The notes beneath the pieces are model-generated. The model searched no databases. It was given only the letters and a program-made list of their open reading frames with translations, and was not told the origin of the DNA. From NCBI GenBank assembly GCA_964650285.1, contig CAZYSP010000001.1, positions 13,169 through 77,168 of the forward strand: 64,000 nucleotides of DNA. Direction: 5' to 3'. Shown here in pieces: positions 11,437-60,293 of the stretch. Origin of the DNA: an uncultured Methanosarcinales archaeon (lineage in GTDB: Archaea; Nanobdellota; Nanobdellia; Woesearchaeales; GW2011-AR4). The position numbers and the translations under genes are program-made. Each line of letters begins with the position of its first letter. Positions within the stretch are counted from its first letter, which is position 1.

Positions 11437-13110
11437 TTATTTTACAATGTTTTTTTCCCTTAAGATTGAAAATAATAAGATTAATGATAAAATCAAAGCC
11501 ACTAAAAAACTTAAAAGGGGAATTGACGGAACATTTAGAAAAACTGGATCTCCAAAATTGATTGTTAAAGCTGCGACAATGAGCAAAGCTGCTATTAGCA
11601 TGCTGTAAGTGACCCTGTTGCTGGATTTGTCTATTTCCAAAGAGAGTTTTTTTATGTCTGTGTCTTCTATGTCTACCTTAATTGTGCCTTTCTCTATCCT
11701 GTTTAGTGCTTTTGATGTCCTGTCTGGAAATTCTTCTGCAAACTTCTTGAATTTGAATATATCTTTCATAAAGTTGTTGAATACATATACTGGATTGTAT
11801 CTTTGTCTTATCAACCTCTCTATAAAAGGCCTTGAACTTTCAATTATCTTGAATTTGGGGTCATACTCAAGGGCAATACCTTCCAACGTTATAACAGTTT
11901 TTCCGAACAAAACAAATGGCATGGGTATTTTTAATCCGTAGTTTAAGGATAAACTCATAATTTCCTCAAGAGTGTAGCTTACCTTTACATTATTTATATC
12001 TCCATATTGCAGAGACTCTAATACATCGCTGATTTCATATTTTAATTCGGCTCTGTTCTCTATAGCAGTGTCGCTTAACTCAATTAATGTATTTACTATC
12101 TTCTCGGCGTTGTTTTCAATGACTCCAGAGAACAAATCTATTGACTTTGCTTTTAAATTTTCATCAAAATGACCAACTATGCCAAAATCAACAAATGCAA
12201 TTTTCTTATCATTGGTAATGATAATATTCCCAGGATGGGGATCTGCATGAAAGAAGCCGTGTATAAAAACCTGGGTTAAGATTGCTTCAAATCCCTTATC
12301 TATTAGCGGCCTTATGTTTATTTTTTTCTGTTTTATTTGTTTTATATTATGCAATTCTATGCCATCTATGAATTCCATTGTTAAAATCTTGTCTGTTGTA
12401 AAGTCATTGTATATTTTGGGTATTTTTATTGTCTTGTCTCTTGAGAAATTCTTTGCGAATCTTTTTGCATTAACTGCTTCTTTCTTAAAATCAAGCTCTT
12501 TTTCAGTCCATTTTGCAAATTCTGCAATTATTTGCACAGGGTTAAATTTTTTTATCTTTGGAATGTGTTTTTCCAGCAATTTCGCGACATAAAACATAAT
12601 TTCAGTATCAGTTTCCATTATTTCCCTTACATTAGGACGCTGTATTTTTACTGCTACTTTTTTATTATTTTTTAGAATAGCTTTATGCACCTGGCTTATG
12701 GAAGCAGAGGCAATAGGCTTTTTTTCAAAATTTAAGAATATTTCATTTATATCTTTTCCAAGCTCTTTTTTTATCTGTTGTTTTGCAATTGCATAAGGGA
12801 ATGGAGGAACTCTGTCCTGTAATTTTTCCAGCTCCTTAATGTAGCTTTTTGGGATTAAGTCTGGCCTTACACTCAAAACCTGTCCAAATTTGATAAAAGT
12901 TGGTCCTAAGCGCTCTAAAGTAAGCCTTAATCTTTTTTCTATAGAAAACTTTTTTTTCTTTTCAATTCTTGCTTTAAGTCTTTTTGTCAGAGGAACCTTA
13001 TGCTTAAGCCTTATTTTAGCAATCAAGAAATCAAATCCTTCCTCAAACAGGACTGTAAGTATTTCCCTAAACCTGTTTATATCTCTTACCTCTTTTATTA
13101 TTTTAAACAT
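11437..13110 (-). CDS. ABC1/UbiB-family atypical protein kinase
   Basis: 'ASASISQVHKA','AVKIQRPNV','HADPHPGNI','AFVDFG' are typical ABC1/AarF kinase motifs. C-terminal TM helices. Confidence 0.85.
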   Translation of the reverse strand: MFKIIKEVRDINRFREILTVLFEEGFDFLIAKIRLKHKVPLTKRLKARIEKKKKFSIEKRLRLTLERLGPTFIKFGQVLSVRPDLIPKSYIKELEKLQDRVPPFPYAIAKQQIKKELGKDINEIFLNFEKKPIASASISQVHKAILKNNKKVAVKIQRPNVREIMETDTEIMFYVAKLLEKHIPKIKKFNPVQIIAEFAKWTEKELDFKKEAVNAKRFAKNFSRDKTIKIPKIYNDFTTDKILTMEFIDGIELHNIKQIKQKKINIRPLIDKGFEAILTQVFIHGFFHADPHPGNIIITNDKKIAFVDFGIVGHFDENLKAKSIDLFSGVIENNAEKIVNTLIELSDTAIENRAELKYEISDVLESLQYGDINNVKVSYTLEEIMSLSLNYGLKIPMPFVLFGKTVITLEGIALEYDPKFKIIESSRPFIERLIRQRYNPVYVFNNFMKDIFKFKKFAEEFPDRTSKALNRIEKGTIKVDIEDTDIKKLSLEIDKSSNRVTYSMLIAALLIVAALTINFGDPVFLNVPSIPLLSFLVALILSLILLFSILREKNIVK

Positions 13111-27325: not shown

Positions 27326-28345
27326 ATGGTTGTACTTAAGAACTATAAAATTGCGACAATAGGATCTCATTCTGCATTGCAAATACTCAAAGGAGCGCAT
27401 GACGAGGGTTTTTCTACTATAGCGATATGTAAGAAAGGAATGGAAAGGCCATATAAGAGTTTTAAAGTTGCTGATAAGATAATTTCTGTAGATAATTATA
27501 AAGAACTTCTTAAAATACAAAATAAGCTGTTGAAAGAGAATGTGATTTTAATACCGCATGCTTCCTTTATTGCTTATATGGGTTATGAAGATGTAGAAAA
27601 GCTCAAGGTTCCGTATTATGGAAATAAAAAGATTTTGAGGTGGGAATCTGACAGGAATCTTGAAAGAAAGTGGCTAAAAGGTGCAGGTTTAAAGCTGCCT
27701 AAAATATTCAAGAACCCTAAGCAAATAGACAGGTCTGTAATTGTTAAGTTTCATGGTGCAAAAGGCGGCAAAGGTTATTTTATTGCAAAGAATTACAATG
27801 ACTTCAGGAAAAAGATAAAGCCCTATAAGGATGAGAAGGGCTATGTGATACAGGAATATATTTTAGGGGTTCCGTTGTTTATACATTATTTCTATTCTTC
27901 ATTGACTAATGAGTTAGAGATAATGGGTTTTGATAAAAGGTATGAGAGCAATGTTGACAGCTTAGGCAGGATTTCAGCAAGAGACCAGTTTGCGCTGGAA
28001 AAAGTGGATCCAAGCTATGTTATTGTTGGCAATATACCTGTTGTTGTACGTGAATCTTTTTTGCCAAGATTAATGGAAATGGGGGAAGCAGTTGTAAAAG
28101 AATCAAAGAAAATAACAGAGAAAGGCTTGTTCGGGCCTTTCTGCCTAGAGACTATTTTAACTCCAAAAGAAGAGATTATTGTTTTTGAAATCTCTGCAAG
28201 AATAGTAGCTGGAACAAATCCTTATGTAGGGGGAAGCCCTTATACCTGGATAAAATACGACGAGCCTATGAGCACTGGGAGAAGAATTGCCCGCGAGATT
28301 AAAATGGCTATTAAGGGGAATAAGTTGAATAAAGTGTTGGGGTAA
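27326..28345 (+). CDS. purP: 5-formaminoimidazole-4-carboxamide ribonucleotide (FAICAR) synthetase PurP, paralog 1
   Basis: 'IATIGSHSALQILKGAHDEGFSTIAIC' matches the PurP N-terminus. ATP-grasp fold, 339 aa. Confidence 0.8.
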   Translation: MVVLKNYKIATIGSHSALQILKGAHDEGFSTIAICKKGMERPYKSFKVADKIISVDNYKELLKIQNKLLKENVILIPHASFIAYMGYEDVEKLKVPYYGNKKILRWESDRNLERKWLKGAGLKLPKIFKNPKQIDRSVIVKFHGAKGGKGYFIAKNYNDFRKKIKPYKDEKGYVIQEYILGVPLFIHYFYSSLTNELEIMGFDKRYESNVDSLGRISARDQFALEKVDPSYVIVGNIPVVVRESFLPRLMEMGEAVVKESKKITEKGLFGPFCLETILTPKEEIIVFEISARIVAGTNPYVGGSPYTWIKYDEPMSTGRRIAREIKMAIKGNKLNKVLG

Positions 28346-28589: not shown

Positions 28590-29717
28590 ATGATAACATC
28601 ACAAAAAATAAAACAAATATTGGAAAATTATGATAAAAACAATATAACTATTGGGACTCTTGGAGGTCATTCTGCTCTTGATATTTGCAGGGGTGCAAAG
28701 CTGCATGGCTTTAAGACAGTAGCTGTTTGTCAACGAGGTAGGGAGAAAACATATGAAAAATATTACAGGACAAGGGGTGGTAAGGGAATAATTGATGAAA
28801 TTATTTTGGTTGATAAGTTTAAGGATATTGTCAAAAAGGATGTTCAGAAGAAGTTAAGAAGCTTGAATACAATTTTTATACACAATAGATATTTCTGGGT
28901 TTACTGCAATTTTAAGGAAATTGAGAATAAGTTTTTAGTTCCTATATTTGGTACAAGGGACATGGTAAAATTGGAAGAAAGGGATGTTCCAAAAAACCAG
29001 TATTATATGCTGCAGAAAGCTGGAATAAGGATTCCGAAAATTTTCAAGAATCCAAAACAAATAGACAGATTAGTTATTGTAAAAGTAGCAGAAGCTGCCA
29101 GAGGTTATGAAAGGGCATTCTTCTTTTGCACTAATTATAAAGGGTATTTAGAAAAATCAAAAGAACTTTTAGGGAAAAAAATAATAACAAAACAGGCACT
29201 TAAAAAAGCTGTTATTGAGGAGTATATTGTAGGAGCCCAGGTTAATTTTAATTATTTTTACAGTGCTTTGGATAATGAACTGGAATTAATGGGTACTGAT
29301 ACAAGAAGACAAACAAATTTGGATGGAATTTTAAGGTTACCAGCAACAGAGCAACTGGAAATTCTGAAATATTTAAAGCCAAAATTGATAGAGACAGGTC
29401 ATATTGCTGTTACAACAAAAGAGAGTATTTTAGAAAAAATATTTGATATTGGGGAAAAATTTGTTGCTGCAACTAAGAAATTGCATCAGCCTGGAATTAT
29501 AGGACCATTTGCACTGCAAGGTGCTGTAGTTGCAGAGAAAGGCAAGGAAGATATTGTAATATTTGATGTTTCTATGAGGATTCCTGGAAGTCCTGGAACT
29601 ATGTTTACACCGTACTCTGCTTATTTATACCACGAGCCAATTTCATATGGGGAAAGGGTTGCTATGGAAATAAGAAAAGCAGCAGATGATGATAAATTAG
29701 ACCTAATATGTACCTAA
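28590..29717 (+). CDS. PurP-family ATP-grasp enzyme, paralog 2 (FAICAR synthetase-like)
   Basis: 'ITIGTLGGHSALDICRGAKLHGFKTVAVC' is homologous to paralog 1 throughout. 375 aa. Confidence 0.75.
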   Translation: MITSQKIKQILENYDKNNITIGTLGGHSALDICRGAKLHGFKTVAVCQRGREKTYEKYYRTRGGKGIIDEIILVDKFKDIVKKDVQKKLRSLNTIFIHNRYFWVYCNFKEIENKFLVPIFGTRDMVKLEERDVPKNQYYMLQKAGIRIPKIFKNPKQIDRLVIVKVAEAARGYERAFFFCTNYKGYLEKSKELLGKKIITKQALKKAVIEEYIVGAQVNFNYFYSALDNELELMGTDTRRQTNLDGILRLPATEQLEILKYLKPKLIETGHIAVTTKESILEKIFDIGEKFVAATKKLHQPGIIGPFALQGAVVAEKGKEDIVIFDVSMRIPGSPGTMFTPYSAYLYHEPISYGERVAMEIRKAADDDKLDLICT

Positions 29718-37345: not shown

Positions 37346-37497
37346 TTTACCCCAACAGATTATAACGGATTGTGATTTATAAACGTTTCCCTTTTTAAAA
37401 CTTTGTTAGGTTACCCAAAAAGGCAAGATTAAGACTGAATGAAACAAAAATAATTTAAAGAAAGTTAGATAATTTATCCCATATATTGTGTGGTTTT

Positions 37498-38793
37498 ATG
37501 AATATTTTGTTAATTGGCAACGGCGCAAGAGAGCATGTAGTAGCAGAGACTCTAAAGAAAAATAAAGCTGTTAAGTTATATTCTTTTATGAAGTCAAAAA
37601 ATCCAGGGATTGCTTCTTTATCTGAAGATGTTTTGGTTGGTTCTTATTCTGATCTTGATGGTATAAAAGATTTTGCAGAGAAAAATAAAATTGATTTTGC
37701 CTTTATAGGCCCTGAAGACCCATTAAATAATGGAGTAGTTGATGCATTAAAAGACATTGGAATTGATGCTGTTGGCCCGACAAAGAGCATGGCCAGGTTA
37801 GAAACAAGTAAATCATTTACAAGAGAATTGTTAAAAAAATATGATATTGAAGGTAATATCAAGTTCAAGGTTTTTAGTAAAGCTGATGGGATAAATGGTT
37901 TTCTTGATGAAATTGATGAAGTTGTTGTAAAGCCGGATGGCTTAACTGGCGGGAAAGGAGTTAAAGTGCAGGGTGACCATTTCAATACAAAAGAAGAAGC
38001 AGCTGAATACTGCAAAGAAGTTTTAGAAAATGATTCATCTGTAATAGTTGAAGAAAAACTGGATGGAGAGGAATTTTCATTGCAATGTTTAACAGACGGG
38101 AAAACTGTTGTTGGAGCACCAGTTGCGCAGGACCATAAAAGGGTTTATGATGATGATAAAGGGCCTAATACCGGAGGCATGGGATCTTATTCCTGCGAGA
38201 ATCATTTATTGCCATTTCTTAAGAAAGAGCATGTTGATAAAGCACTGGAAATAACAAAAAAGGTTGCTGATGCTATTTATCAAGAAACAGGTTTGTATTA
38301 TAAAGGAGTTATGTATGGTGGTTTTATTTTAACAAAAGAGGGTATTAAGCTTTTGGAGTATAATGCAAGACTTGGAGATCCAGAGGCTATGAATGTTCTG
38401 CCTTTGCTTAAGACAGATTTTGCAGCTATATGCCAGGCAATAATTGTGCAGGAACTTGATAGAGTTAAGGTTGAATTTGAGAAAAAAGCTACAGTATGCA
38501 AGTATGTTGTGCCAGAAGGTTATCCTGAAAATCCAGTTAAGAATGAAAAAATAACAGTAAAAATTCCTGAAAAAACAAGAATATACTATGCATCTGTTGA
38601 CCAAAAAGAAGATGGATTATATATGACTGGCTCAAGGGCAATTGCATTTTTAGGCATTGGAAATAATTTAGATGAAGCAGAAAAGGTTGTAGAAGAGTCT
38701 GTTTGTAATGTAAAAGGCAAGGTATTTCACAGGAAAGATATTGGGACTAAGGGATTGATTGAGAAAAGGATAAAGCATGTAAAAAGTTTTTAG
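37498..38793 (+). CDS. purD: Phosphoribosylamine--glycine ligase
   Basis: 'MNILLIGNGAREH' (PurD N-terminus) and an ATP-grasp core. The ORF track begins at a TTG 4 codons upstream. Confidence 0.85.
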   Translation: MNILLIGNGAREHVVAETLKKNKAVKLYSFMKSKNPGIASLSEDVLVGSYSDLDGIKDFAEKNKIDFAFIGPEDPLNNGVVDALKDIGIDAVGPTKSMARLETSKSFTRELLKKYDIEGNIKFKVFSKADGINGFLDEIDEVVVKPDGLTGGKGVKVQGDHFNTKEEAAEYCKEVLENDSSVIVEEKLDGEEFSLQCLTDGKTVVGAPVAQDHKRVYDDDKGPNTGGMGSYSCENHLLPFLKKEHVDKALEITKKVADAIYQETGLYYKGVMYGGFILTKEGIKLLEYNARLGDPEAMNVLPLLKTDFAAICQAIIVQELDRVKVEFEKKATVCKYVVPEGYPENPVKNEKITVKIPEKTRIYYASVDQKEDGLYMTGSRAIAFLGIGNNLDEAEKVVEESVCNVKGKVFHRKDIGTKGLIEKRIKHVKSF

Positions 38794-38794
38794 G

Positions 38795-39367
38795 ATGAAA
38801 CAGACATTAAAACAGGAAATTTCTGGAAAAAGAAAAACACTTAGTAAAGAAGAAGTTATTAAGAAAAGCAAGTTAATAAAGAAAAATCTATGTTCTTTAT
38901 CTGAATTTAAGAAAGCCAGGAATATTATGTTCTATGTTTCTTTTAATAATGAGGTTGATACGCATGAGGTTATTAAAGAACTGTTAAGCGAGAAAGAAAA
39001 AAATATTATTGTTCCATATGTATTAAAAAACAATCCAATCCTGCAACTTTCTGAAATAAGAGATTTTAATGAATTAGAACCTAAAAGTTTTGGTATTTTA
39101 GAGCCGAGAGAACTTTACATTAGAGAATTCAATCCTAATAAAATTGATTTGGTTATATTGCCTGGCTTGGTGTTTGACAAAAAAGGATGCAGAGTAGGCT
39201 ATGGATATGGATATTATGACAGGTTTCTTAAAAAAGTTAAGAAGGTGAAAAAAATCGGGCTTGCTTTTGAATTGCAGTTAGTTGATGAAATTCCTAAAGA
39301 AAAGCATGATGTTCCTGTCGATATTCTGGTTACTGAAAAAAGAGTTCTCAAATGTAGTGGGAAATAA
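38795..39367 (+). CDS. 5-formyltetrahydrofolate cyclo-ligase (MTHFS)
   Basis: 'ILPGLVFDKKGCRVGYGYGYYDRFL' is the 5-FTHF cyclo-ligase signature. Confidence 0.75.
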   Translation: MKQTLKQEISGKRKTLSKEEVIKKSKLIKKNLCSLSEFKKARNIMFYVSFNNEVDTHEVIKELLSEKEKNIIVPYVLKNNPILQLSEIRDFNELEPKSFGILEPRELYIREFNPNKIDLVILPGLVFDKKGCRVGYGYGYYDRFLKKVKKVKKIGLAFELQLVDEIPKEKHDVPVDILVTEKRVLKCSGK

Positions 39368-39370
39368 AAA

Positions 39371-40246
39371 ATGCCTAAGTTAATGCAAAGAAAACCGGAT
39401 TGGTTCAAGATTAAACTGCCAACTGGAGAAAAGTATAGTGAAGTAAAAGGTTTAGTAAAGACAAATAGATTGAATACTATATGCGAGGAAGCTAAATGCC
39501 CAAATATTTCTGAGTGTTGGAGTCATGGAACTGCTACTTTTCTTATTTTAGGGCATGTTTGTACAAGATATTGCAGCTATTGTAATGTTAAGACTGGAAA
39601 ACCTTTAGATGTTGATGCTGATGAAGGAAAAAAAGTTGCTGACAGTGTTAAGAAACTGGGCTTAAGGTATGTTGTTGTAACTTCTGTAACAAGGGATGAT
39701 TTAGAAGATGGTGGTGCTTCATTGTATGTTGATGTAATAAAAGAAATTAAGAAAGTAAGCTCATGTAAAGTTGAGTTATTGATTCCGGATTTGAAAACAA
39801 AAGATGGAATTGATGTTGATGCTTTAAAAAAAATAATTGATGCAAAACCAGATGTTCTTGGTCATAATATTGAAGCAGTAAGAAGTGTTTTTTCAGAAGT
39901 AAGAAAAGGTGGTAATTATGATGTTTCATTGGAGTTATTAAAAAAAATAAAAGAAATTGATGCTGATATGAGAACAAAATCGGGGATTATGGTTGGTTTT
40001 GGTGAAAGTTTTGATGAGATTAAAGAAACAATGCAGGATTTAAGGGATGTTGGTGTTGATTTTTTAACAATAGGGCAGTATTTGCAGCCTTCTGAGAAGC
40101 ATGCTAAAATCATCAGGTTTTACAGGCCAGAAGAATTTGAAGAATTAAAGAAAATCGGTTTGGAAATGGGATTTAAGCATGTTGAAGCTGGGCCATTGGT
40201 TAGGAGCTCTTACAGGGCTGATAAGCTGAATTCATTGATACAATAA
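39371..40246 (+). CDS. lipA: Lipoyl synthase
   Basis: 'CEEAKCPNISECW' (auxiliary cluster) and 'CTRYCSYCNV' (radical-SAM CxxxCxxC). Confidence 0.9.
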   Translation: MPKLMQRKPDWFKIKLPTGEKYSEVKGLVKTNRLNTICEEAKCPNISECWSHGTATFLILGHVCTRYCSYCNVKTGKPLDVDADEGKKVADSVKKLGLRYVVVTSVTRDDLEDGGASLYVDVIKEIKKVSSCKVELLIPDLKTKDGIDVDALKKIIDAKPDVLGHNIEAVRSVFSEVRKGGNYDVSLELLKKIKEIDADMRTKSGIMVGFGESFDEIKETMQDLRDVGVDFLTIGQYLQPSEKHAKIIRFYRPEEFEELKKIGLEMGFKHVEAGPLVRSSYRADKLNSLIQ

Positions 40247-40344
40247 AAAAATTCCAATAAAGTTAAGAAACATAATACTGATTATTTGATTAAGATAAAA
40301 ATTAATTTACAATTAGAAAATAAAAACGCAATAAAAATAAAATA

Positions 40345-40478
40345 AAAAACATCATTACTGCGACGCAAAATGCTTGATTTATTAATAATAAAATTTCAAT
40401 GTCCAAAAGAAATAAAGTTAAAAATAAAATAATGAATTAATAAATAATTGTGAATCATAAGATAAAAATTAATGAAAA
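40345..40478 (+). repeat. Conserved intergenic element with GC cores (M-c/M-d copy 2)
   Basis: 'AAAAACATCATTACTGCGACGCAAAATGCTTGATTTATTAATAATAAAATTTCAATG...AAAATAAAATAATGAATTAATAAATAATTGTGAATCATAAGATAAAAATTAATG', immediately 5' of the lplA ATG. Confidence 0.6.
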
Positions 40479-41279
40479 ATGAAATGCAGATTTATTGATA
40501 CTGGGTTTAATGATGCTTTTTTTAATATGGCTATAGATGAGGCTATTTTGCATTATTGTAAAATTCCTGTTTTAAGGGTTTATGGCTGGAAACCTGCTGG
40601 AGTATCTATTGGATACAATCAGGATTTACATAAAGAAATAAACATTGATTACTGCAAAAAAAACAATATAGATGTAGTAAGGAGAGTAAGTGGTGGTAAA
40701 GCGGTTTTTCATGACAAGGAACTAACTTACAGTTTCATTATTCCAGAGAGCATTAATTTATTACCAAGAGAAATTAATGAATCATACAAAGAAATAGCAA
40801 AAGCATTGGTTTTGGCATTTGAAAAATTAGGCATTAAAGCGGAAATAAAAAAAATTCCAGAGAGGATTGCAACTTCTATATGCTTTAACAGCTCAAACTG
40901 GTATGAGTTGTTGATTAATGGGAAAAAAATTTCTGGTTCTGCACAAAGAAGGATGGATGGAAAGATACTGCAGCATGGCTCAATACTTTTAGATTTTGAT
41001 TATGAGAAAAATAGCTTGTTATTTAATTCTAATAATTTAATTGACAATATTAATAATTTAAGAAAAAGGATTACATCATTAAAAAAAGAATTGAATAAAT
41101 CAATAGATTACAGTGAGCTTGGTTCTGCATTAAAATCTGGTTTTAGGGAGAATTTTGATTTTGATTTAATTGATGATTCTTTAACAAATGAAGAGATTAT
41201 TTTGGCTGAGAAATTAAGGAAAGAGAAGTATTTGACAGAAGAATGGAATTACAAATTGATATGGGAAAATTTAATATAA
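40479..41279 (+). CDS. lplA: Lipoate-protein ligase A (BPL/LPL catalytic domain)
   Basis: 'RRVSGGKAVFHD','GKKISGSAQRR' are LplA/LipB-family motifs. Confidence 0.8.
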   Translation: MKCRFIDTGFNDAFFNMAIDEAILHYCKIPVLRVYGWKPAGVSIGYNQDLHKEINIDYCKKNNIDVVRRVSGGKAVFHDKELTYSFIIPESINLLPREINESYKEIAKALVLAFEKLGIKAEIKKIPERIATSICFNSSNWYELLINGKKISGSAQRRMDGKILQHGSILLDFDYEKNSLLFNSNNLIDNINNLRKRITSLKKELNKSIDYSELGSALKSGFRENFDFDLIDDSLTNEEIILAEKLRKEKYLTEEWNYKLIWENLI

Positions 41280-41378
41280 ATTTTCCCTAGTTCAGTAAAG
41301 TTTTCACTACGTTCAAACTTTATAAACTAACAAAAACTATTTAAATAAAGTTGAATTTGGGTTTTTCAGGGTGGTTTA

Positions 41379-42680
41379 ATGTATGATATGATGGCTTCTA
41401 TTGAAAAGTCTGATTCTAAGGTATATGAGATTATAAAAAAAGAAGTTGAGAGGATGAAGAATGGTGTTGAGTTAATTCCTTCTGAGAATGTTGTCAGCAA
41501 AGCTGTGCTGCAGGCAATGGGTTCTGTTTTAACTAATAAATATTCAGAAGGCTATCCTCACAAGAGGTATTATGGCGGAAATGAGATTATTGATATGGCA
41601 GAAGACTTGGCTATTGAAAGAGCCAAGAAGCTTTTTGGAGCAGAGCATGTTAATGTACAGCCATATTCAGGAAGCCCTGCTAACCAGGCTGTTTTCTTTG
41701 CTTTGCTGAACTTAAAGGATACTTTTATGGGTTTTGACTTAAGCGCAGGCGGTCATTTAACGCATGGAAGCCCTGTTAATTTTTCCGGTAAAAACTATAA
41801 TTGTGTTGCTTATAATGTTGATAAGGAAACTGAGTTACTAGATTATGATAAGATTAAGAAGCAGGCAGAAAAAGTAAAGCCCAAGATGATTATTTCCGGG
41901 TTAACTGCTTATCCAAGGAAAATAGATTTTAAGGCTTTTCAGGAAATTTGTGATTCTGTTGGTGCTTATCATATGGCTGATATTGCGCATATAGCTGGAT
42001 TATGCGCTACTGGTGTTCATGAAAATCCTGTTAGGTATACTGATATTGTTACAACCACTACACATAAAACTTTGCGCGGTCCAAGAGGAGCAATGATAAT
42101 GTGCAAGATTGAGGATAAATTTGATAAGAATGGGAAGAAAAATCTTGCGCAGAAAATTGATTCTGCTGTTTTTCCGGGCTTACAGGGAGGTCCTCATGAC
42201 AATGTTAATATTGCAAAAGCAGTTGCATTTGGAGAGGATTTAAAGCCTGAGTTTAAGGTTTATTGCAGGCAGATTGTAAAAAATGCCAAGGTTTTGGCAG
42301 ATTCTTTGATGAGTAATGGTTTAGAGCTTGTAACTAACGGGACTGACAACCATCTGATGGTCATCAAGCTTGTAAACAAAGGTTTGACTGGTAAGGGGAA
42401 AGAGGTGCAGAATGCATTAGATAAAGCAGGAATAACTATAAATAAGAATACTGTACCATATGAGCCTGGAAGTCCGTTTCATCCTTCAGGAATAAGGTTA
42501 GGGACACCAGCTGTAACAACAAGAGGAATGAAAGAAAGTGAAATGAAAGTTATTGGTAAAAGCATAGCAAAAGTAATTGATAATTTAGATGATAATAAGG
42601 TTATTGGAAATGTTAAAAAGGATATACTGGAATTATGCAAAAGGTTTCCGCTTTATCCGGGATTTGATATTTTAAAATGA
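41379..42680 (+). CDS. glyA: Serine hydroxymethyltransferase
   Basis: 'LIPSENVVS','NKYSEGYP','TTTTHKTLRGPRG' (PLP-Lys). Confidence 0.9.
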   Translation: MYDMMASIEKSDSKVYEIIKKEVERMKNGVELIPSENVVSKAVLQAMGSVLTNKYSEGYPHKRYYGGNEIIDMAEDLAIERAKKLFGAEHVNVQPYSGSPANQAVFFALLNLKDTFMGFDLSAGGHLTHGSPVNFSGKNYNCVAYNVDKETELLDYDKIKKQAEKVKPKMIISGLTAYPRKIDFKAFQEICDSVGAYHMADIAHIAGLCATGVHENPVRYTDIVTTTTHKTLRGPRGAMIMCKIEDKFDKNGKKNLAQKIDSAVFPGLQGGPHDNVNIAKAVAFGEDLKPEFKVYCRQIVKNAKVLADSLMSNGLELVTNGTDNHLMVIKLVNKGLTGKGKEVQNALDKAGITINKNTVPYEPGSPFHPSGIRLGTPAVTTRGMKESEMKVIGKSIAKVIDNLDDNKVIGNVKKDILELCKRFPLYPGFDILK

Positions 42681-43519
42681 CTGCAAAAATAATTGATGGG
42701 AAGGCTTTGTCATTAAAGTTTCTTAATGATGTTAGGAAGAAGGCTGCTAATGTAAAACCCGGGTTGGCTATTGTTATTGTAGGGAATAATCCTGCTTCTG
42801 AGATTTATGTAGGCCTTAAGGAGAAAAAATCCAAGGAAATCGGATTTTATGTTGAAAGGTATAATCTGGATGAAAATGTTAAACAGGATGAATTGCTTAA
42901 GTTAGTTGATGAATTGAACCAGAACAGGAAAATAAATGGGTTTATTGTTCAACTGCCATTGCCTAAGCATATTGATGAGAATCTTGTAATTGATTCAATA
43001 CTGCCTCACAAGGATGTAGATGGATTTACTCCTGTTAGTTTAGGAAATTTGGTTAATGACAATAATTTATTACTGCCGGCTACTGCCAGGGCTTGTTTAG
43101 AGCTGATTAAGTCTACTGGTGTTGAGATTAAAGGCAAGAATGCAGTTGTTGTTGGCAGAAGCAATATTGTTGGAAAGCCAACTGCTTTACTTTTATTGCA
43201 GGAAAATGCTACTGTTACTGTTTGCCATTCAAAAACTAAAGATCTTAAGGAATTTACTAAAAATGCTGATATTCTGGTTGTTGCGGTTGGAAAAGCAAAG
43301 ATGCTCAAGAAAAACATGGTCAAAAAAGGTGCAGTAGTAATTGATGTCGGAATAAACAGAACTGCTTTTGGAATTGTTGGAGATGTTGATTTCGAAAACG
43401 TAAAAGAAGTTTCTGGTTTTATTACTCCGGTTCCCGGTGGAGTTGGACCAATGACAATTGCTATGCTTCTTGATAATACTTTGAAAGCTAGGGAGTTGAG
43501 GAAGGGGCTTAAGTTTTAG
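42677..43519 (+). CDS. folD: Bifunctional 5,10-methylene-THF dehydrogenase/methenyl-THF cyclohydrolase
   Basis: 'KIIDGKALS','LAIVIVGNNPASEIYV','VVGRSNIVGKP','GGVGPMTIAML'. Confidence 0.9.
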   Translation: MTAKIIDGKALSLKFLNDVRKKAANVKPGLAIVIVGNNPASEIYVGLKEKKSKEIGFYVERYNLDENVKQDELLKLVDELNQNRKINGFIVQLPLPKHIDENLVIDSILPHKDVDGFTPVSLGNLVNDNNLLLPATARACLELIKSTGVEIKGKNAVVVGRSNIVGKPTALLLLQENATVTVCHSKTKDLKEFTKNADILVVAVGKAKMLKKNMVKKGAVVIDVGINRTAFGIVGDVDFENVKEVSGFITPVPGGVGPMTIAMLLDNTLKARELRKGLKF

Positions 43520-43537
43520 AGAAAAGAATTAATAATG

Positions 43538-44023
43538 TTAAGGTTTTAATACATATGAAGAGAAAGCTTTAGATATTCTGCTGTTATAAATGGTTTCAGA
43601 TAAAGAATTCAAAAATTTGCTTCTTGGTATATAATACCACTTACCACTCATTTCAAGTTTGTTCCATTTTTCTTTATCTGAATCTTTATCTGAATTCTTA
43701 TATGCAACCTCAAATCTAGCCAAACCAGTGTCTATACCTAATGAAGTAATTATAAATCCCAGAGTAAGATTATAATCACCATTTATGGCACTTGTAAATG
43801 ACAGTAACTTAGCAATATCTGAACCTATAGCAACAACATCTAATGCGCGTGTTCTAACAAAAGTCTCCAAGTTTGGTTTAGGTATTGGTATATTCATTTT
43901 AATATGAGGTAATCCTACTGAATATTTAAAATTATTGAAAACTACTTTATCAAATTCCACCCCCAAAACCTTTATAAACTTCCATAATTTCTCTTTATTA
44001 CCGGTGGTTGTGTTGTTAAACAT
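43538..44023 (-). CDS. Hypothetical protein (start uncertain)
   Basis: A 187-aa minus-strand ORF fills the 416-nt folD-purN gap. Its N-terminal 26 codons are antisense to the purN 5' region, so the start is set at Met27 (44023). No motif recognised. Confidence 0.3.
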   Translation of the reverse strand: MFNNTTTGNKEKLWKFIKVLGVEFDKVVFNNFKYSVGLPHIKMNIPIPKPNLETFVRTRALDVVAIGSDIAKLLSFTSAINGDYNLTLGFIITSLGIDTGLARFEVAYKNSDKDSDKEKWNKLEMSGKWYYIPRSKFLNSLSETIYNSRISKAFSSYVLKP

Positions 44024-44654
44024 CGGGGTACTGGCATCTACGAGGGCAAGTGATTTGCAGGCTATAATTGATGCTATAGAAGCCAAGGAGCTTAATGTCA
44101 AGATTTCTGTTGTTGTTTCTGATAAGAAAGATGCTTATGCTCTGGAAAGGGCTAAGAAGCATGGTATTGAGGCTGTTTTTATTGATGCCAAGGCAGAAGA
44201 TATTCTTGCTGTTAAGGATAAAGAGGAAAGAAGAGAGGCTTTTGACAGAAAAGTTGCAGCAGAACTGGAAAAACATGATGTTGAGCTGATTCTGGCTATT
44301 GGCTATATGAGAATCATAGGCCAGTGGCTTGTGGATAAATTCAGAAACAAGATAATAAATATTCATCCTTCTTTACTGCCGGCATTTGCAGGCGGAATGG
44401 ACAAGGATGTCCACAAAGATGTTCTTGAATCAGGTGTAAAGGAAACAGGATGTACACTGTTTTTTATTGATGAAACTGTTGATGCAGGACCGGTAATATT
44501 CAAGAAAAAGGTTGATGTAGAAGAAAATGAAACTGTAGATACATTAAAAGAAAAAGTGCAAAAAGCAGAGCAGGAAGTACTAATAAGGGCAATAAAATTA
44601 TATGATGGAGGAAAGCTAAAAGTTGAGAATGGCAAGGTGGAAATTGTAGAATGA
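44013..44654 (+). CDS. purN: Phosphoribosylglycinamide formyltransferase
   Basis: '(M)LNIGVLASTRASDLQAIIDA' aligns with the PurN N-terminus (IAVLASGRGSNLQAII). 'INIHPSLLPAFAG','GCTLFFIDETVDAGPVI'. The start is probably the TTG at 44013 (or GTG 44004/44010); the ATG at 43935 would add an atypical 26-aa extension. Confidence 0.7.
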   Translation: MLNIGVLASTRASDLQAIIDAIEAKELNVKISVVVSDKKDAYALERAKKHGIEAVFIDAKAEDILAVKDKEERREAFDRKVAAELEKHDVELILAIGYMRIIGQWLVDKFRNKIINIHPSLLPAFAGGMDKDVHKDVLESGVKETGCTLFFIDETVDAGPVIFKKKVDVEENETVDTLKEKVQKAEQEVLIRAIKLYDGGKLKVENGKVEIVE

Positions 44655-46156
44655 AAACAGCATTAATATCAGTCTCAAACAAAACAGGCATTGTGGAATT
44701 TGCCCGCGGCTTAAAAAAATCAGGAATAAAAATACTGTCAACAGGCGGAACTGCTAAATTACTGAAGAAAAACAACATCAAAGTAACGCAGATTTCTAAA
44801 TACATAAGAAGCAAGGAAATGTTTGAAGGGAGAGTAAAAAGTTTACATCCAAAAATATATGCAGGAATCCTAGCTGTAAGAAAAAACAAAGAACATATGA
44901 AGGAATTAAAAAACAACAATATTGATCCAATAGACATTGTTGTTGTAAATCTTTACCCTTTTGAGGAAACTGTTGGGAAAAAAGCATCTTTTAAGCAAGC
45001 AATTGAAAATATTGACATTGGAGGCCCAACTTTAGTAAGGGCTGCTGCAAAAAACTTCCAGGATGTCGCAATCGTAGTTGATCCGGATGATTACAACGAT
45101 GTATTAAGAGGAAAAATAAGCAAAGAAAATCTGGCTTTAAAGGCTTTTGAGCATACTGCAAGGTATGGTGCAATAATAAACAATTATTTCAACAATAAAT
45201 TCGGGAGGAAATTCCCGGACACATTAAACTTAACTTTCAAAAAAGTGCAGGACTTAAGGTATGGTGAAAATCCGCACCAAAAAGGAGCCTTCTATAAAGA
45301 CCCTTTCATAGATGAATGCTGCATAACAAATGCAAAGCAGCTGCATGGGAAAGAATTATCTTACAATAATCTCTTAGACATGGAAAATGCTTTTGAATTG
45401 ATTAAAGAATTTACAACACCTAGTGTGGCTATAATAAAACACAATAATCCGTGCGGAATTGCTTCAAGAAAAACAATTAATGAGGCGTATAAAGCAGCAT
45501 TGGAAGCCGATCCGTTATCTGCTTTTGGCTCAATAGTAGCTTTGAACAGGAATTGCGACAAAAAAGCAGCCGAGGCAATAAAGCCCCATTTTGTAGAAGT
45601 GGTTATCTGCCCTAAATTTGATAAATATGCCTTAGACATATTAAAACAAAAAAAGAATGTAAGGCTTATGGAAACTGGTTCAATAACAAAGCCGTGTCCG
45701 GGTTATGCTATGACAAAAGTAACTGGGGGCTTGCTGATGCAGACAAGAGACCATATGAAGATATCTGAAAAAAATCTTAAGGTTGTGAGCAAAAGGAAGC
45801 CAACCAAAAAGGAAATAGAAGATATGATTTTTGCATTTAAGGTAAACAAGCATGTTAAATCCAATTCAATAGTTTTTGTAAAAAATAATGTAACAACGGG
45901 CATTGGTGCAGGACAGACATCAAGAGTGGATGCTGTTAAGATAGCTGCAGATAAATCTAAAGGTGCATCAAAAGACTCTGTAATGTCATCTGATGCTTTT
46001 TTTCCATTTAGGGATGGAATTGATGAAGCGGCAAAAGCCGGAATAACAGCAGTAATACAGCCAGGAGGCTCTATAAGGGATAAGGATGTAATAGATACTG
46101 TCAATGAATATAATATGGCAATGGTATTTACAGGCATCAGGTTGTTTAGGCATTAG
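44651..46156 (+). CDS. purH: Bifunctional AICAR transformylase / IMP cyclohydrolase
   Basis: An N-terminal MGS-like domain ('ALISVSNKTGIVEFA','STGGTAKLL') and a C-terminal AICARFT domain ('KHNNPCG','GIGAGQTSRVD'). 4-nt overlap with purN. Confidence 0.9.
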   Translation: MKTALISVSNKTGIVEFARGLKKSGIKILSTGGTAKLLKKNNIKVTQISKYIRSKEMFEGRVKSLHPKIYAGILAVRKNKEHMKELKNNNIDPIDIVVVNLYPFEETVGKKASFKQAIENIDIGGPTLVRAAAKNFQDVAIVVDPDDYNDVLRGKISKENLALKAFEHTARYGAIINNYFNNKFGRKFPDTLNLTFKKVQDLRYGENPHQKGAFYKDPFIDECCITNAKQLHGKELSYNNLLDMENAFELIKEFTTPSVAIIKHNNPCGIASRKTINEAYKAALEADPLSAFGSIVALNRNCDKKAAEAIKPHFVEVVICPKFDKYALDILKQKKNVRLMETGSITKPCPGYAMTKVTGGLLMQTRDHMKISEKNLKVVSKRKPTKKEIEDMIFAFKVNKHVKSNSIVFVKNNVTTGIGAGQTSRVDAVKIAADKSKGASKDSVMSSDAFFPFRDGIDEAAKAGITAVIQPGGSIRDKDVIDTVNEYNMAMVFTGIRLFRH

Positions 46157-46189
46157 ATTTATATATAACATATTTTTTTCTTTGGTAAA

Positions 46190-46450
46190 ATGGGCGAAAA
46201 AAAATATATATTACAGCATGACAGGCCTAATTGCATTGGATGTGGAGCTTGTGAGGCAGTTGCTCCTGATTTCTGGGAGATGAATGATGATGGCAAGTCT
46301 GATATCAAAGGGGGCAAACATCTTGACAATGAATGGCAGGAGCTTGAGATTGAAGAAAAGGACCTTGCAATAAATAAAGATGCAGCAGACTCATGCCCGG
46401 TTAATGTCATACATATAATCAAGAAGGGCAGTAAGGAGAAGATAATTTAA
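46190..46450 (+). CDS. Small single-cluster ferredoxin
   Basis: 'CIGCGACEAVAP...CPVNVI' is a ferredoxin-type Cys pattern. Confidence 0.55.
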   Translation: MGEKKYILQHDRPNCIGCGACEAVAPDFWEMNDDGKSDIKGGKHLDNEWQELEIEEKDLAINKDAADSCPVNVIHIIKKGSKEKII

Positions 46451-46498
46451 TTATTATTTCTGATTATAAAAACCTTAATAAATACATGTAGCTTATTT

Positions 46499-46696
46499 GT
46501 GAGTATGAAATGCCCTAAATGCAAATCAAGTAATGTAAAGATAGTTGATTATCTTAGTGCTAAGTGTATTAAATGCAATGATTGCGGTTTTGATGAAACT
46601 AAACAATATGATGTTTATCCTGAAGAAAAGAAATCACAAAAAGAGAAAGGAAAATACACACCGTACAAGGCCGGGGGATTTAAACGCACAAAATGA
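46499..46696 (+). CDS. Zinc-ribbon small protein
   Basis: 'CPKCKS...CIKCNDCG' Cys4 ribbon plus a basic tail. Its stop overlaps the ispH start by 4 nt. Confidence 0.4.
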   Translation: MSMKCPKCKSSNVKIVDYLSAKCIKCNDCGFDETKQYDVYPEEKKSQKEKGKYTPYKAGGFKRTK

Positions 46697-47601
46697 ATAT
46701 TATAGTTGCAAAGCATGCAGGATTTTGTTCTGGAGTTAAGAATGCAATAGATACAGCAGAAGAAGTTGCATCAGGGAAAAACGAGATTTATGTTTATGGG
46801 CAGCTGGTGCATAATGAAAGGGTCATCAGGGATTTAGAGAAAAAAGGGATAAAATTTGCAGATGATATTGAGGATATTCCTGAAAATTCTGTTACAGTGC
46901 TCAGGGCACATGGCGAACCCGGAACAACTTATGAAAAATTAAAGCAGAAGAATATTTTTGGTGATAAGCTTAAGGATGCCACATGCCCTTTAGTAAAATT
47001 AGTCCATAATGTTGCAATTAAACTGAAAGATAATGGCTATGAGGTAATAATATTCGGCAAGAAAGACCATCCGGAATCTATAGGCATAAGCTATTACATA
47101 AAAGGAAAAGATACATTAATTGTTGAAAATCCTGAAGATGCGTCTTCTGTTGTTGAGTACATAAATCAGCTTGAAAAAGCTGCTATAATTTCACAAACAA
47201 CAATGTCTGTTACAGGCTATAAGCAATTGATAGACAATATTAACAGGTTGTCTGATAAAAAATTTGAGCAATTGCATTTAAGCCTTAAAGATATTCGAAA
47301 TAATTTTGTTTTTGTGGATACAATATGCAATCCTACCAAGCAAAGACAATCAGATACAGAAGATATTGCAAAAAAGGCGGATGTAATGATTGTTATTGGC
47401 AGTAAAAAATCAAGCAATTCAAAAGAATTAGCAACAAAAAGTGAAGAGTTGGGTGTAGAAACTTACTTTATACAATCTTCAGAGCGGTTGAAAAAAGAGT
47501 GGTTTGAAAATAAAGAAAATGTTGGTGTTACTGCAGGAGCTTCTACTCCTGATATTACTATTAATGAGGTTGTTGAGAAGATAAAGAAGCTTACTTTGTA
47601 A
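46693..47601 (+). CDS. ispH: 4-hydroxy-3-methylbut-2-enyl diphosphate reductase (IspH/LytB)
   Basis: All three cluster Cys contexts ('GFCSGV','ATCPLV','DTICNPT'), 'VHNERV', 'AHGEP', 'DHPES', 'SQTTMS', 'VIGSKKSSNSKEL', 'GVTAGASTPD'. Confidence 0.85.
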   Translation: MNIIVAKHAGFCSGVKNAIDTAEEVASGKNEIYVYGQLVHNERVIRDLEKKGIKFADDIEDIPENSVTVLRAHGEPGTTYEKLKQKNIFGDKLKDATCPLVKLVHNVAIKLKDNGYEVIIFGKKDHPESIGISYYIKGKDTLIVENPEDASSVVEYINQLEKAAIISQTTMSVTGYKQLIDNINRLSDKKFEQLHLSLKDIRNNFVFVDTICNPTKQRQSDTEDIAKKADVMIVIGSKKSSNSKELATKSEELGVETYFIQSSERLKKEWFENKENVGVTAGASTPDITINEVVEKIKKLTL

Positions 47602-48046
47602 AGAATCCAGCTCTTTCAGGATCAAATTTCCATTCAGAAGCAAGCTTTCCTGTTTGTTTGTAATGCTTTGTCAGTGATTTTATCTTTGATTCTGTTAGTA
47701 TAAGACCATGTTTTGCTGTTTCATCTTTATGATTTGTTTCTAAATGCTTTCTTATTGCAACAGATCTTCTTATTAAAGATAATAAATCATCTGGAAGTTC
47801 AGGAGCTATTTTCTTTTCTTTTAATACAGCAGATATTTTTTTCTTGCACAAAAGCCTTACATCAGGAATTCCATAAGTATCTCTCAGCATAATACCTATT
47901 TCAGAAGAATTTTTGCCTTCTTTTGCTAATTTGACCATTAAAAGCTCAACTTCACTGGGCTTGTACCTTAGCCATACAGGCAAAACTTTCTTAATTGGCT
48001 TTTTAGAGCCACTTTTGCCATGTTTTTTTGAATATTTCCTTGCCAT
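47591..48046 (-). CDS. rps15: 30S ribosomal protein S15 (uS15, archaeal/S13e type)
   Basis: The characteristic N-terminal 'MARKYSKKHGKSGSKKP' and C-terminal S15 helical domain. Confidence 0.85.
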   Translation of the reverse strand: MARKYSKKHGKSGSKKPIKKVLPVWLRYKPSEVELLMVKLAKEGKNSSEIGIMLRDTYGIPDVRLLCKKKISAVLKEKKIAPELPDDLLSLIRRSVAIRKHLETNHKDETAKHGLILTESKIKSLTKHYKQTGKLASEWKFDPERAGFFTK

Positions 48047-60124: not shown

Positions 60125-60155
60125 TCACCTCGCGCTATAAAATTATAAGTCGAGT

Positions 60156-60241
60156 GCGGGGGTGGCAGAGTCTGGTCAAATGTGCAAGGTTGAGGGCCTT
60201 GTCCTTTAGTGGGTGCGCGTGTTCAAATCACGTCCCCCGCA
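60156..60241 (+). tRNA. tRNA-Leu (anticodon GAG), long variable arm
   Basis: GCGGGGG-TG-GCAGAGTCTGGTCAAATGTGC-AAGG-TTGAGGG-CCTTG-[var arm TCCTTTAGTGGGTGCGC]-GTGTTCAAATCAC-GTCCCCCGC-A. The acceptor pairs perfectly and the anticodon loop reads TTGAGGG. Confidence 0.8.
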
Positions 60242-60293
60242 TTAAAAAAACAATCATAACGACGTAGGGCCTCGTAAAGCGACACACCCCAAG

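Follow-up and report, generated by a model that had tools for sequence, protein, structure and literature searches.

What is a gene for IspH, the terminal enzyme of the MEP pathway, doing on an archaeal contig, behind a ferredoxin gene and a gene for a small Zn-ribbon protein? We refer to the whole stretch of DNA analysed, 64,000 nucleotides long, as the window. The ferredoxin, Zn-ribbon and IspH reading frames are all present on its + strand, as stated in a preliminary description of this DNA. The features of interest are as follows.

37486..46156, + strand: purD-MTHFS-lipA-lplA-glyA-folD-purN-purH, genes of purine and one-carbon metabolism (Pfam), upstream of the ferredoxin gene
46190..46450, + strand: monocluster [4Fe-4S] ferredoxin, 86 aa (Fer4_15, match to 1ROF/1VJW, CxxCxxC...CP motif)
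46451..46504, + strand: AT-rich spacer of 54 nt between the ferredoxin gene and znr, in which a TATA-like TTAATAAATA lies some 25 nt ahead of the znr ATG, as read from the sequence
46505..46696, + strand: znr, small Zn-ribbon protein, 63 aa, with four invariant Cys and a conserved basic tail, KSQKxKGxYTPYKxGG
46693..47601, + strand: ispH (lytB), 4-hydroxy-3-methylbut-2-enyl diphosphate (HMBPP) reductase, 302 aa (TIGR00216, PF02401, PDB 3DNF, active-site residues)
47591..48046, − strand: archaeal ribosomal protein uS15, S13e type (NF006331, 179.6 bits, cutoff 154), convergent with ispH, with which it shares 11 nt

The product of ispH scores 267.5 bits against the curated model TIGR00216 (cutoff 187.85, residues 2-299 covered) and 282.4 bits against PF02401 (cutoff 24.5). 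It aligns end to end with the IspH of Aquifex (3DNF, over residues 2-299 of the window protein, E 7e-52) and with that of E. coli (E 3e-41). The cluster ligands C12, C98 and C212 are all present, aligned to the cysteines of both enzymes (C12, C96 and C197 in E. coli). The substrate and proton-relay residues are kept as well, namely H40, H73, H126, E128, T169/T170, S240-S241-N242 and S284, whose E. coli counterparts are H41, H74, H124, E126, T167, S225-S226-N227 and S269. We take the [4Fe-4S] cluster to be held by C12, C98 and C212 and to bind the C4-hydroxyl of HMBPP, the diphosphate of HMBPP to be held by H40, H126, S240-S241-N242 and S284, and the proton relay to consist of E128 and T169. 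The scores above cutoff and the alignment to solved enzymes bear out the preliminary description of an IspH with all three cluster cysteines and the conserved substrate residues. The protein is a genuine IspH with a fully canonical active site and, judging from these residues, is probably a functional HMBPP reductase.

As IspH is a bacterial-type enzyme, a fragment of bacterial DNA carrying ispH might have been mis-joined into an archaeal contig during assembly or binning. The contig bears a series of archaeal markers (uS15, fibrillarin, Nop5, two PurP, ATP-dependent DNA ligase, diphthine synthase), among them an S13-S4-S11-RpoD-L18e-L13-S9-RpoN block. Assemblies from ENA, JGI, NCBI and Logan yield 24 contigs with the same gene order, and both junctions flanking ispH recur in these products of independent assemblers and projects. 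P0001, a public protein identical to the window IspH, is encoded on these 24 contigs and is also present in the Tara catalogue. The overlap of ispH with an archaeal uS15 gene argues against a mis-joining too, as does the GC content, which is 0.339 in the 2-kb window containing ispH and lies between 0.30 and 0.38 across the 64 kb. The homologues of the window IspH are named Woesearchaeota or Nanoarchaeota archaeon, and Woesearchaeota supply all of the closest ones; the top bacterial match of a genome scan is 38% identical. A mis-joined bacterial ispH is refuted by the order of genes on the 24 contigs and by the Woesearchaeota homologues, and we give an artefact practically no chance. The contig is archaeal, from a marine DPANN/Woesearchaeota organism, and is not chimeric. 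No Rfam family reached the gathering score over the whole window.

The preliminary description had named horizontal acquisition of IspH as a possibility, and the IspH tree agrees. Archaeal IspH sequences were monophyletic in 50 of 50 bootstraps of a neighbour-joining (NJ) tree; their identity to the window protein is 64-78%, and no other full-length IspH cluster exceeds 46%. Moreover, the identity of IspH to its relatives (66-78%) tracks that of uS15 (70-87%). An old bacterial transfer is supported by these comparisons: a large clade of Woesearchaeota would have received the MEP pathway from bacteria long ago and inherited it vertically since then.

Where, then, is the rest of the pathway? No other MEP gene was found in the 64-kb window, as noted in the preliminary description, and this holds also for the 10 kb beyond either end. 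Mevalonate genes (HMGR, MVK, IPK and others) were equally absent from the window and its 10-kb flanks; the single AA_kinase-family gene there, at 9412-10086, looks by eye like an archaeal UMP kinase. Taken alone, the lack of a second MEP gene would suit an organism that has kept only the last step, either to salvage HMBPP from a host into IPP and DMAPP or for a non-canonical reaction, as had been suggested for this locus. The physical separation of ispH from the MEP cluster in the window's clade, and the fact that Dxs is not among the MEP genes located for the organism, also go in this direction.

The relatives point elsewhere. At loci L014-L017, the order is dxr-ispDF-ispE-ispH followed by a polyprenyl synthase gene (idsA); ispG lies nearby in L014 and L016, and uS15 comes after the polyprenyl synthase in L014-L016. 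In the L014 cluster, IspG, Dxr, IspE and the IspD and IspF domains are above the curated NCBIfam cutoffs, and the polyprenyl synthase is below its cutoff. A second type of locus (L092-L095 and L100-L104) reads ispG-dxr-ispDF-ispE-cupredoxin-FabI-Trx-PDH and is missing exactly ispH. Such clusters occur in the same assemblies as the window's ispH: IspH P0001 and IspG P0129 are both found in ERZ27286502 and in JGI 3300036767, and IspH P0002 (on a contig of 98,448 nt) and IspG P0241 (96,343 nt) are both found in assembly ERZ908531, these four proteins being known only from unannotated metagenome assemblies. The ispH locus and the ispG-dxr-ispDF-ispE locus, with its ispDF fusion, each exist as two variants that are about 98-99% identical, so that the variants match in pairs. 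The MEP contigs are also the closest to the window in composition, with tetranucleotide correlations of 0.970 and 0.961, above those of every other locus outside the window, in a comparison that discriminates poorly, since related marine Woesearchaeota score 0.93-0.94. We conclude that ispG-dxr-ispDF-ispE are most likely encoded elsewhere in the genome of the same population, on a separate contig, the link being made of co-occurrence, complementary gene content and composition in samples shared with related Woesearchaeota.

Two candidates for Dxs were rejected. The E1alpha and E1beta genes beside the MEP cluster could have been a Dxs in two pieces; by NCBIfam they belong to pyruvate dehydrogenase (E1alpha scores 452.6 bits against TIGR03181, cutoff 411, and E1beta has the PDH E1beta model as its best match), and their scores with the dxs model are only 31 and 56 bits. 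In L128, the 599-aa gene that precedes the Zn-ribbon gene encodes a transketolase. The approximately 84 kb of window plus flanks contained no polyprenyl synthase, and neither did the 21-kb MEP loci.

The presence of the pathway in these archaea is also documented in print. Castelle et al. 2021 (PMC8204110) report it for 52 Woesearchaeota genomes that form a monophyletic clade, and Huang et al. 2021 (PMC8421398) for the Woesearchaeota subgroups F and J; the latter article describes an ispD/F fusion and lists dxs for the MEP clade. MEP enzymes in DPANN were noted by Hoshino & Gaucher 2018 (PMC6107057), and the bacterial-type pathway of Woesearchaeota has been in print since 2018 (Castelle & Banfield 2018, cited in PMC8421398). 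That ispH stands apart from the remaining MEP genes in the window's clade makes this layout a variant, and does not exclude these organisms from the Woesearchaeota MEP clade. With relatives that have ispH in dxr-ispDF-ispE-ispH-idsA, with an ispH-less cluster in the same assemblies, and with a fully canonical active site, it becomes very unlikely that ispH serves a lone salvage step or encodes a non-canonical enzyme. The preliminary description had further argued that the contig must be bacterial or chimeric if a complete MEP pathway is located elsewhere; this does not follow, as the pathway is published for an archaeal clade and the order of genes recurs on 24 contigs.

The way in which ispH may have left the cluster can be read from two layouts. 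The first is [ferredoxin-Zn-ribbon | cupredoxin-FabI-Trx-PDH] plus [ispG..dxr-ispDF-ispE | ispH-idsA-uS15]. The second, that of the window's clade, is [ferredoxin-Zn-ribbon | ispH-(idsA)-uS15] plus [ispE | cupredoxin-FabI-Trx-PDH]. All four junctions were recovered, two of them within one MAG, ARS102 (ZNR MAH33526.1, PDH E1alpha MAH33530.1, IspH MAH33645.1, IspG MAH33655.1), whose accession pattern is repeated in two other accession series. From these four junctions it follows that one reciprocal rearrangement, most simply one inversion, would convert one layout into the other, and would have brought ispH to its place after a ferredoxin/Zn-ribbon gene pair that already existed. The window's own species would in addition have lost idsA from the ispH position. 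uS15 is a conserved anchor for the ispH side of the rearrangement, and lies downstream of ispH(-idsA) in L011-L016, L105, L112 and L114.

The two gene orders separate in the NJ tree built on the full data, and do so cleanly in 19 of 50 bootstraps. When this tree is rooted with outgroups, IspH of the cluster type is nested inside IspH of the ferredoxin type. Since the outgroups are about 35% identical and the rooting is unreliable, we claim neither layout as ancestral. Taking gene content, gene order and IspH phylogeny together, our reading, to which we give a probability of roughly 85%, is that the window encodes the canonical last enzyme of a bacterial-type MEP pathway, that the rest of this pathway lies elsewhere in the genome, and that ispH was moved by a rearrangement.

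The ferredoxin and the Zn-ribbon protein remain to be placed in this picture. The ferredoxin scores 54.9 bits against Pfam Fer4_15 (cutoff 22.4), and its motif is C15xxC18xxC21...C69P. C15, C21 and C69-P70 are invariant in the alignment of homologues, and C18 is Cys in five stand-alone ferredoxins and Gln in the fused homologue of L014. Among solved structures, the closest are the Thermotoga maritima ferredoxin (1ROF/1VJW, E 3.7e-9) and its Pyrococcus furiosus counterpart (2Z8Q, E 2e-7). An 87-aa ORF on the opposite strand (46159..46422, −) was rejected as the shadow of a conserved coding region, as it lies over the Pfam-supported ferredoxin gene; such an antisense shadow ORF recurs in L113.

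The family of the Zn-ribbon protein comprises 473 clusters, which are all annotated as hypothetical and carry no Pfam domain; to date it has been met only in Woesearchaeota. Cys3, Cys6, Cys24 and Cys27 of the window protein never vary across 56 homologues. The Pfam matches of this protein are below cutoff (Lar_restr_allev, 21.7 versus 28.6), a comparison with NCBIfam gave no match, and a profile search of the PDB returned nothing below E 0.19. An AlphaFold2 model built with 56 sequences had a pLDDT of 62 and a pTM of 0.26.

The preliminary description had these three reading frames translationally coupled. This stands for znr and ispH, in which stop and start overlap (ATGA at 46693-46696), and as read from the DNA these two genes must be co-transcribed, because they overlap. 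It does not stand for the ferredoxin gene, since the 54-nt spacer with its TATA-like TTAATAAATA separates it from znr; this element may be a separate, putative promoter for znr-ispH. The start of znr also needs correction, the GTG at 46499 proposed earlier being an upstream alternative to the ATG at 46505 that public gene calls use.

Could the ferredoxin and the Zn-ribbon protein be dedicated to delivering electrons to IspH, their adjacency being functional rather than a by-product of the rearrangement? IspH requires two electrons from a low-potential carrier to convert HMBPP into IPP and DMAPP, and ferredoxin is the donor in plants, apicomplexans and cyanobacteria. The arrangement, moreover, is kept over many lineages, as at least 29 of the 120 IspH clusters listed have a longest contig of the same size as that of a Zn-ribbon cluster. 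In other genomes, too, the gene after the pair is linked to ferredoxin: in the majority of lineages it encodes an RnfD/NqrB-like membrane protein of the stand-alone type, and in one lineage a ferredoxin:thioredoxin-reductase-beta-like protein. However, of the metagenome loci that could be evaluated, 21 of 26 have the ferredoxin gene immediately before the Zn-ribbon gene, whereas only 3 of 24 have IspH immediately after it, meaning that the pair goes without IspH in most sampled lineages. In ARS102, ispH is part of the MEP cluster, far from the pair. Nor is the overlap of znr and ispH a conserved feature: 42-220 nt lie between the two genes in L012, L105 and L013. A likely promoter stands between the ferredoxin gene and znr. 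These counts and ARS102 speak against the dedicated ferredoxin-Zn-ribbon-IspH operon of the preliminary description, and we find dedicated delivery doubtful.

Judged by its gene neighbourhoods, the pair is an older, Woesearchaeota-wide module that is not specific to IspH. In many Woesearchaeota purN-purH precede it at a distance of a few genes, as seen in L105, L112, L115, L117, L119, L122, L126 and L131. In L013, the ferredoxin gene follows folB-folK-folE, and L014 encodes a fusion of a ferredoxin-like domain with a pterin-binding DUF4346 domain; that the ferredoxin belongs with folate/pterin genes is suggestive only. We take the ferredoxin to be a general [4Fe-4S] carrier that may reduce IspH (and IspG), and its putative role as IspH reductant is plausible. 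Still more speculative, and in our opinion improbable, is the idea that the pair constitutes an undescribed two-protein electron-delivery module, placed before ferredoxin-dependent proteins (IspH, RnfD/NqrB-like, ferredoxin:thioredoxin-reductase-like), in which the Zn-ribbon protein would act as an adaptor or as a rubredoxin-like Fe(Cys)4 partner rather than bind nucleic acids.

These results bear on the source of isoprenoid precursors in host-dependent DPANN archaea, a matter already in print for Woesearchaeota, where bacterial-type IspH is known. An ispH that looks orphan in a 64-kb view is no evidence for a salvage lifestyle. What is new is only the splitting of a MEP cluster by one apparently traceable rearrangement, and an uncharacterised, unnamed and widespread ferredoxin/Zn-ribbon gene pair in the Woesearchaeota phylum. 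The accepted picture is left unchanged by the rearrangement, by the gene pair and by the orphan-ispH point.

Compared with known systems, the window IspH matches the enzymes of Aquifex aeolicus (3DNF) and E. coli (3KE8/3F7T) over the whole solved chain, with all of their cluster cysteines and substrate and proton-relay residues. It differs from both by an insertion of about 15-17 residues before C212 (around residues 186-205), and bacterial IspH is at most about 46% identical to it. The ferredoxin shares its CxxCxxC...CP motif and length class with the monocluster [4Fe-4S] ferredoxins of T. maritima and P. furiosus (1VJW, 2Z8Q). It has, relative to that of T. maritima, a 13-residue insertion between the two cluster-binding segments and, unlike these proteins as described, is constantly paired with a lineage-specific Zn-ribbon gene. 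The ferredoxin-dependent IspH of plastids, apicoplasts and cyanobacteria likely also has a small iron-sulfur ferredoxin, not a flavodoxin, as reductant, as supposed here; those ferredoxins are of the [2Fe-2S] plant type, whereas that of the window is a monocluster [4Fe-4S] protein whose putative partnership with IspH is suggested by adjacency. The published MEP pathway of Woesearchaeota, as presented in the consulted portions of these articles, has the same DPANN host, the same ispD/F fusion, MEP genes of bacterial origin and no mevalonate genes seen. The same portions of PMC8204110, PMC8421398 and PMC6107057 contain no description of a split of ispH or of a rearrangement behind it. They present MEP genes that are co-located, whereas in the window ispH is detached from ispG-dxr-ispDF-ispE and stands behind a ferredoxin/Zn-ribbon pair.

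Three plus-strand genes are present at this locus, at the places first given for them, and the observation is confirmed:

46190-46450, + strand: single-cluster ferredoxin, 86 aa (Pfam Fer4_15, 54.9 bits, cutoff 22.4)
ATG start at 46505, + strand: Zn-ribbon protein (gene znr), 63 aa (public gene calls)
46693-47601, + strand: IspH, 302 aa (TIGR00216, 267.5 bits, cutoff 187.85; PF02401, 282 bits)

The start originally proposed for znr, 46499, is an upstream GTG, and is replaced here by the ATG of the public calls. The ferredoxin shows the motif C15xxC18xxC21...C69P, and among solved structures it is nearest to monocluster [4Fe-4S] ferredoxins, from Thermotoga maritima (E 3.7e-9) and from Pyrococcus furiosus. 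IspH could be aligned end to end with the solved enzymes of Aquifex (3DNF, E 7e-52) and E. coli. All three cluster ligands (C12, C98 and C212) and the substrate residues (H40, H73, H126, E128, T169/T170, S240-S241-N242 and S284) are intact, as had been noted. The protein most likely uses its [4Fe-4S] cluster to reduce HMBPP to IPP and DMAPP. Compared to the Aquifex and E. coli proteins, it has an insertion of ~15-17 residues before the third cluster Cys (residues ~186-205, 47247-47310). Translational coupling had been proposed for the whole trio, but only znr and ispH overlap (ATGA), and these two must be co-transcribed. Coupling does not extend to the ferredoxin gene, separated from the downstream znr by a 54-nt AT-rich spacer with a TATA-like element.

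No second MEP gene was found in the window, as previously stated, nor within 10 kb past either end. The preliminary description had offered an orphan salvage step as one possible reading of ispH, and this reading did not survive the comparison with related loci. The relatives L014-L017, with IspH 66-72% identical, carry dxr-ispDF-ispE-ispH and, after it, a gene for a polyprenyl synthase (L014 assignments by NCBIfam); in L014-L016 the next gene, on the opposite strand, encodes uS15, the same neighbour as in the window, and in L014 and L016 ispG lies a few kb from the cluster. The L014 IspG, used as a query, retrieved P0129 and its variant P0241 (~99% identical), whose loci read ispG-dxr-ispDF-ispE-cupredoxin-FabI(-)-Trx-PDH E1alpha-E1beta-E2 and lack ispH. 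P0129 and the window's IspH are both present in ERZ27286502 and JGI 3300036767, while ERZ908531 contains P0241 on a 96,343-nt contig and the sister IspH variant P0002 on a 98,448-nt contig. Tetranucleotide scores to the window were 0.970 and 0.961 for these MEP loci, the closest of all loci tested, against 0.93-0.94 for other marine Woesearchaeota and 0.56-0.73 for bacteria. Taken together, the contiguous cluster in relatives, the complementary cluster in the same assemblies and the matching composition are strong circumstantial evidence that the window's ispH is not an orphan, its presumed MEP partners being on separate contigs that are not physically linked to it. Dxs was not located for this organism. 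What stands of the initial interpretation is a bacterial-type IspH, predicted to be active and horizontally acquired, in an archaeon.

It had also been proposed that a complete MEP pathway found elsewhere would mark the contig as bacterial or chimeric. The window is archaeal throughout. An archaeal uS15 gene is convergent with ispH (11-nt overlap), and the window further encodes fibrillarin, Nop5, two PurP, ATP-dependent DNA ligase, diphthine synthase and a block S13-S4-S11-RpoD-L18e-L13-S9-RpoN. Its IspH is identical to public protein P0001, the gene order is repeated on 24 contigs of independent assemblies, all named homologues come from Candidatus Woesearchaeota or Nanoarchaeota archaeon, and the GC of the 2-kb segment with ispH (0.339) is inside the range of the whole stretch. 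The contig is thus neither bacterial nor chimeric. A close relative, L011, is the MAG ETNP7_MAG_25. It comes from the Eastern Tropical North Pacific, where the study in PMC10936187 also took samples.

Other genes of this archaeon deserve mention. The two tandem PurP paralogues (27326-28345 and 28590-29717; DUF1246+DUF1297, archaeal formate-dependent FAICAR synthetase family) coexist with a bifunctional, bacterial-type PurH (44651-46156), so that AICAR formylation appears to be encoded twice. An ABC1/UbiB-type atypical kinase (11437-13110, - strand, 557 aa; PF03109, 278 bits) may be related to the use of MEP products, since in other organisms its family is associated with the making of isoprenoid quinones. 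ARAGORN reported an 88-nt tRNA-Leu(GAG) at 60155-60242; Rfam at gathering score gave no match across the window, this tRNA included. Lipid and acetyl-CoA genes of bacterial type are also present (L092:15101-19754; L089:16117-18596, 10 kb past the window's end). Their products are a PDH E1alpha/E1beta/E2 complex, two CDP-alcohol phosphatidyltransferases, a PlsC-type acyltransferase (PF01553) and a FabI-like enoyl-ACP reductase, the last named from its top NCBIfam hit, which falls short of the curated threshold. On the contig presumed to carry the MEP genes of the window's population, ispE is directly followed by a gene for a cupredoxin of 127 aa (L092:14705-15088, L100:14705-15088). The protein resembles the C-terminal CuA domain of NosZ/COX2, and its gene may be the one that PMC10936187 discusses as 'nosZ-like' in DPANN of oxygen-deficient zones.

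IspH requires a low-potential electron donor, a role for which the neighbouring ferredoxin is a plausible choice. That the genes lie side by side does not argue for dedicated partners, because the ferredoxin/Zn-ribbon pair is distributed independently of ispH. A metagenome scan with the Zn-ribbon alignment returned 27 loci; the gene immediately before that for the Zn-ribbon protein encoded the ferredoxin in 21 of 26 evaluable loci, and the one immediately after it encoded IspH in only 3 of 24. In most of the sampled Woesearchaeota the next gene encodes a stand-alone RnfD/NqrB-family membrane protein (PF03116, 256-284 aa), outside any rnf operon, as in these metagenome loci:

L120:5689-7038, pair with RnfD/NqrB-family gene
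L123:5598-6959, pair with RnfD/NqrB-family gene
L119:4794-7045, pair with RnfD/NqrB-family gene
L131:5684-7033, pair with RnfD/NqrB-family gene

Close to this arrangement there are often genes for thymidylate synthase and DHFR as well as lipA and purN-purH, and at one locus the gene after the pair is ferredoxin:thioredoxin-reductase-beta-like. Four Cys of the Zn-ribbon protein are invariant across 56 homologues, and its basic tail is also conserved. Pfam, NCBIfam and PDB searches gave no described relative, and its predicted structure was unusable. The family comprises 473 clusters, all hypothetical and none with a Pfam domain, and the named ones all come from Woesearchaeota or unclassified archaeon MAGs. 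In L014 (14158-14988), a 276-aa protein fuses a ferredoxin-like Fer4_15 domain to the pterin-binding DUF4346; the former shares 34% identity with the ferredoxin of the window and has Gln in place of its second cluster Cys. In addition, in L013 the ferredoxin gene comes after folB-folK-folE, a hint that the ferredoxin family is linked to pterin/folate metabolism.

The pair also occurs in L113, where it is followed by cupredoxin-FabI(-)-Trx-PDH E1alpha-E1beta-E2, 50-81% identical to the genes after ispE on the presumed MEP contig. The Zn-ribbon protein (MAH33526.1) and PDH E1alpha (MAH33530.1) of L113 belong to the same accession block, MAG ARS102, as the cluster-type IspH (MAH33645.1) and IspG (MAH33655.1) of L014, and the pattern is repeated in two further accession series. 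One genome therefore has both junctions, ferredoxin-Zn-ribbon/cupredoxin and ispE/ispH; those of the window's clade are ferredoxin-Zn-ribbon/ispH and ispE/cupredoxin. One reciprocal exchange accounts for the four junctions, and a single inversion would suffice if the two loci are oppositely oriented. The derived-looking ferredoxin-Zn-ribbon-ispH layout is common: L011-L013, L105, L112, L114 and L117 show it directly, and for at least 29 of 120 listed IspH clusters the longest contig equals in size that of a listed Zn-ribbon cluster. In L013 and L105 polyprenyl synthase still follows ispH; it is lost from this position in the window's species. Archaeal IspH forms one clade in 50/50 bootstraps, but just 19/50 separate the two layouts and rooting is unreliable, so that either layout may be the ancestral one. 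The sister species with IspH P0014 has an ORF resembling LAGLIDADG-type homing endonucleases (L105:13254-13937; weak Pfam match) beside uS15, close to the rearrangement junction region.

The bacterial-type MEP pathway in Woesearchaeota is itself an already published phenomenon. MEP enzymes were noted in a few DPANN archaea (Hoshino & Gaucher 2018, PMC6107057); the pathway was proposed for some Woesearchaeota by Castelle & Banfield 2018 (as cited in PMC8421398), found with co-located genes in a monophyletic clade of 52 genomes (Castelle et al. 2021, PMC8204110), described for subgroups F and J, where ispD/F is a fusion and the affinities are bacterial (Huang et al. 2021, PMC8421398), and reported in Woesearchaeota MAGs from oxygen-deficient zones in 2024 (PMC10936187). 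To this we add two modest points: the ferredoxin/Zn-ribbon pair is a conserved module, so far seen only in Woesearchaeota, and the MEP cluster is split by a reciprocal rearrangement.
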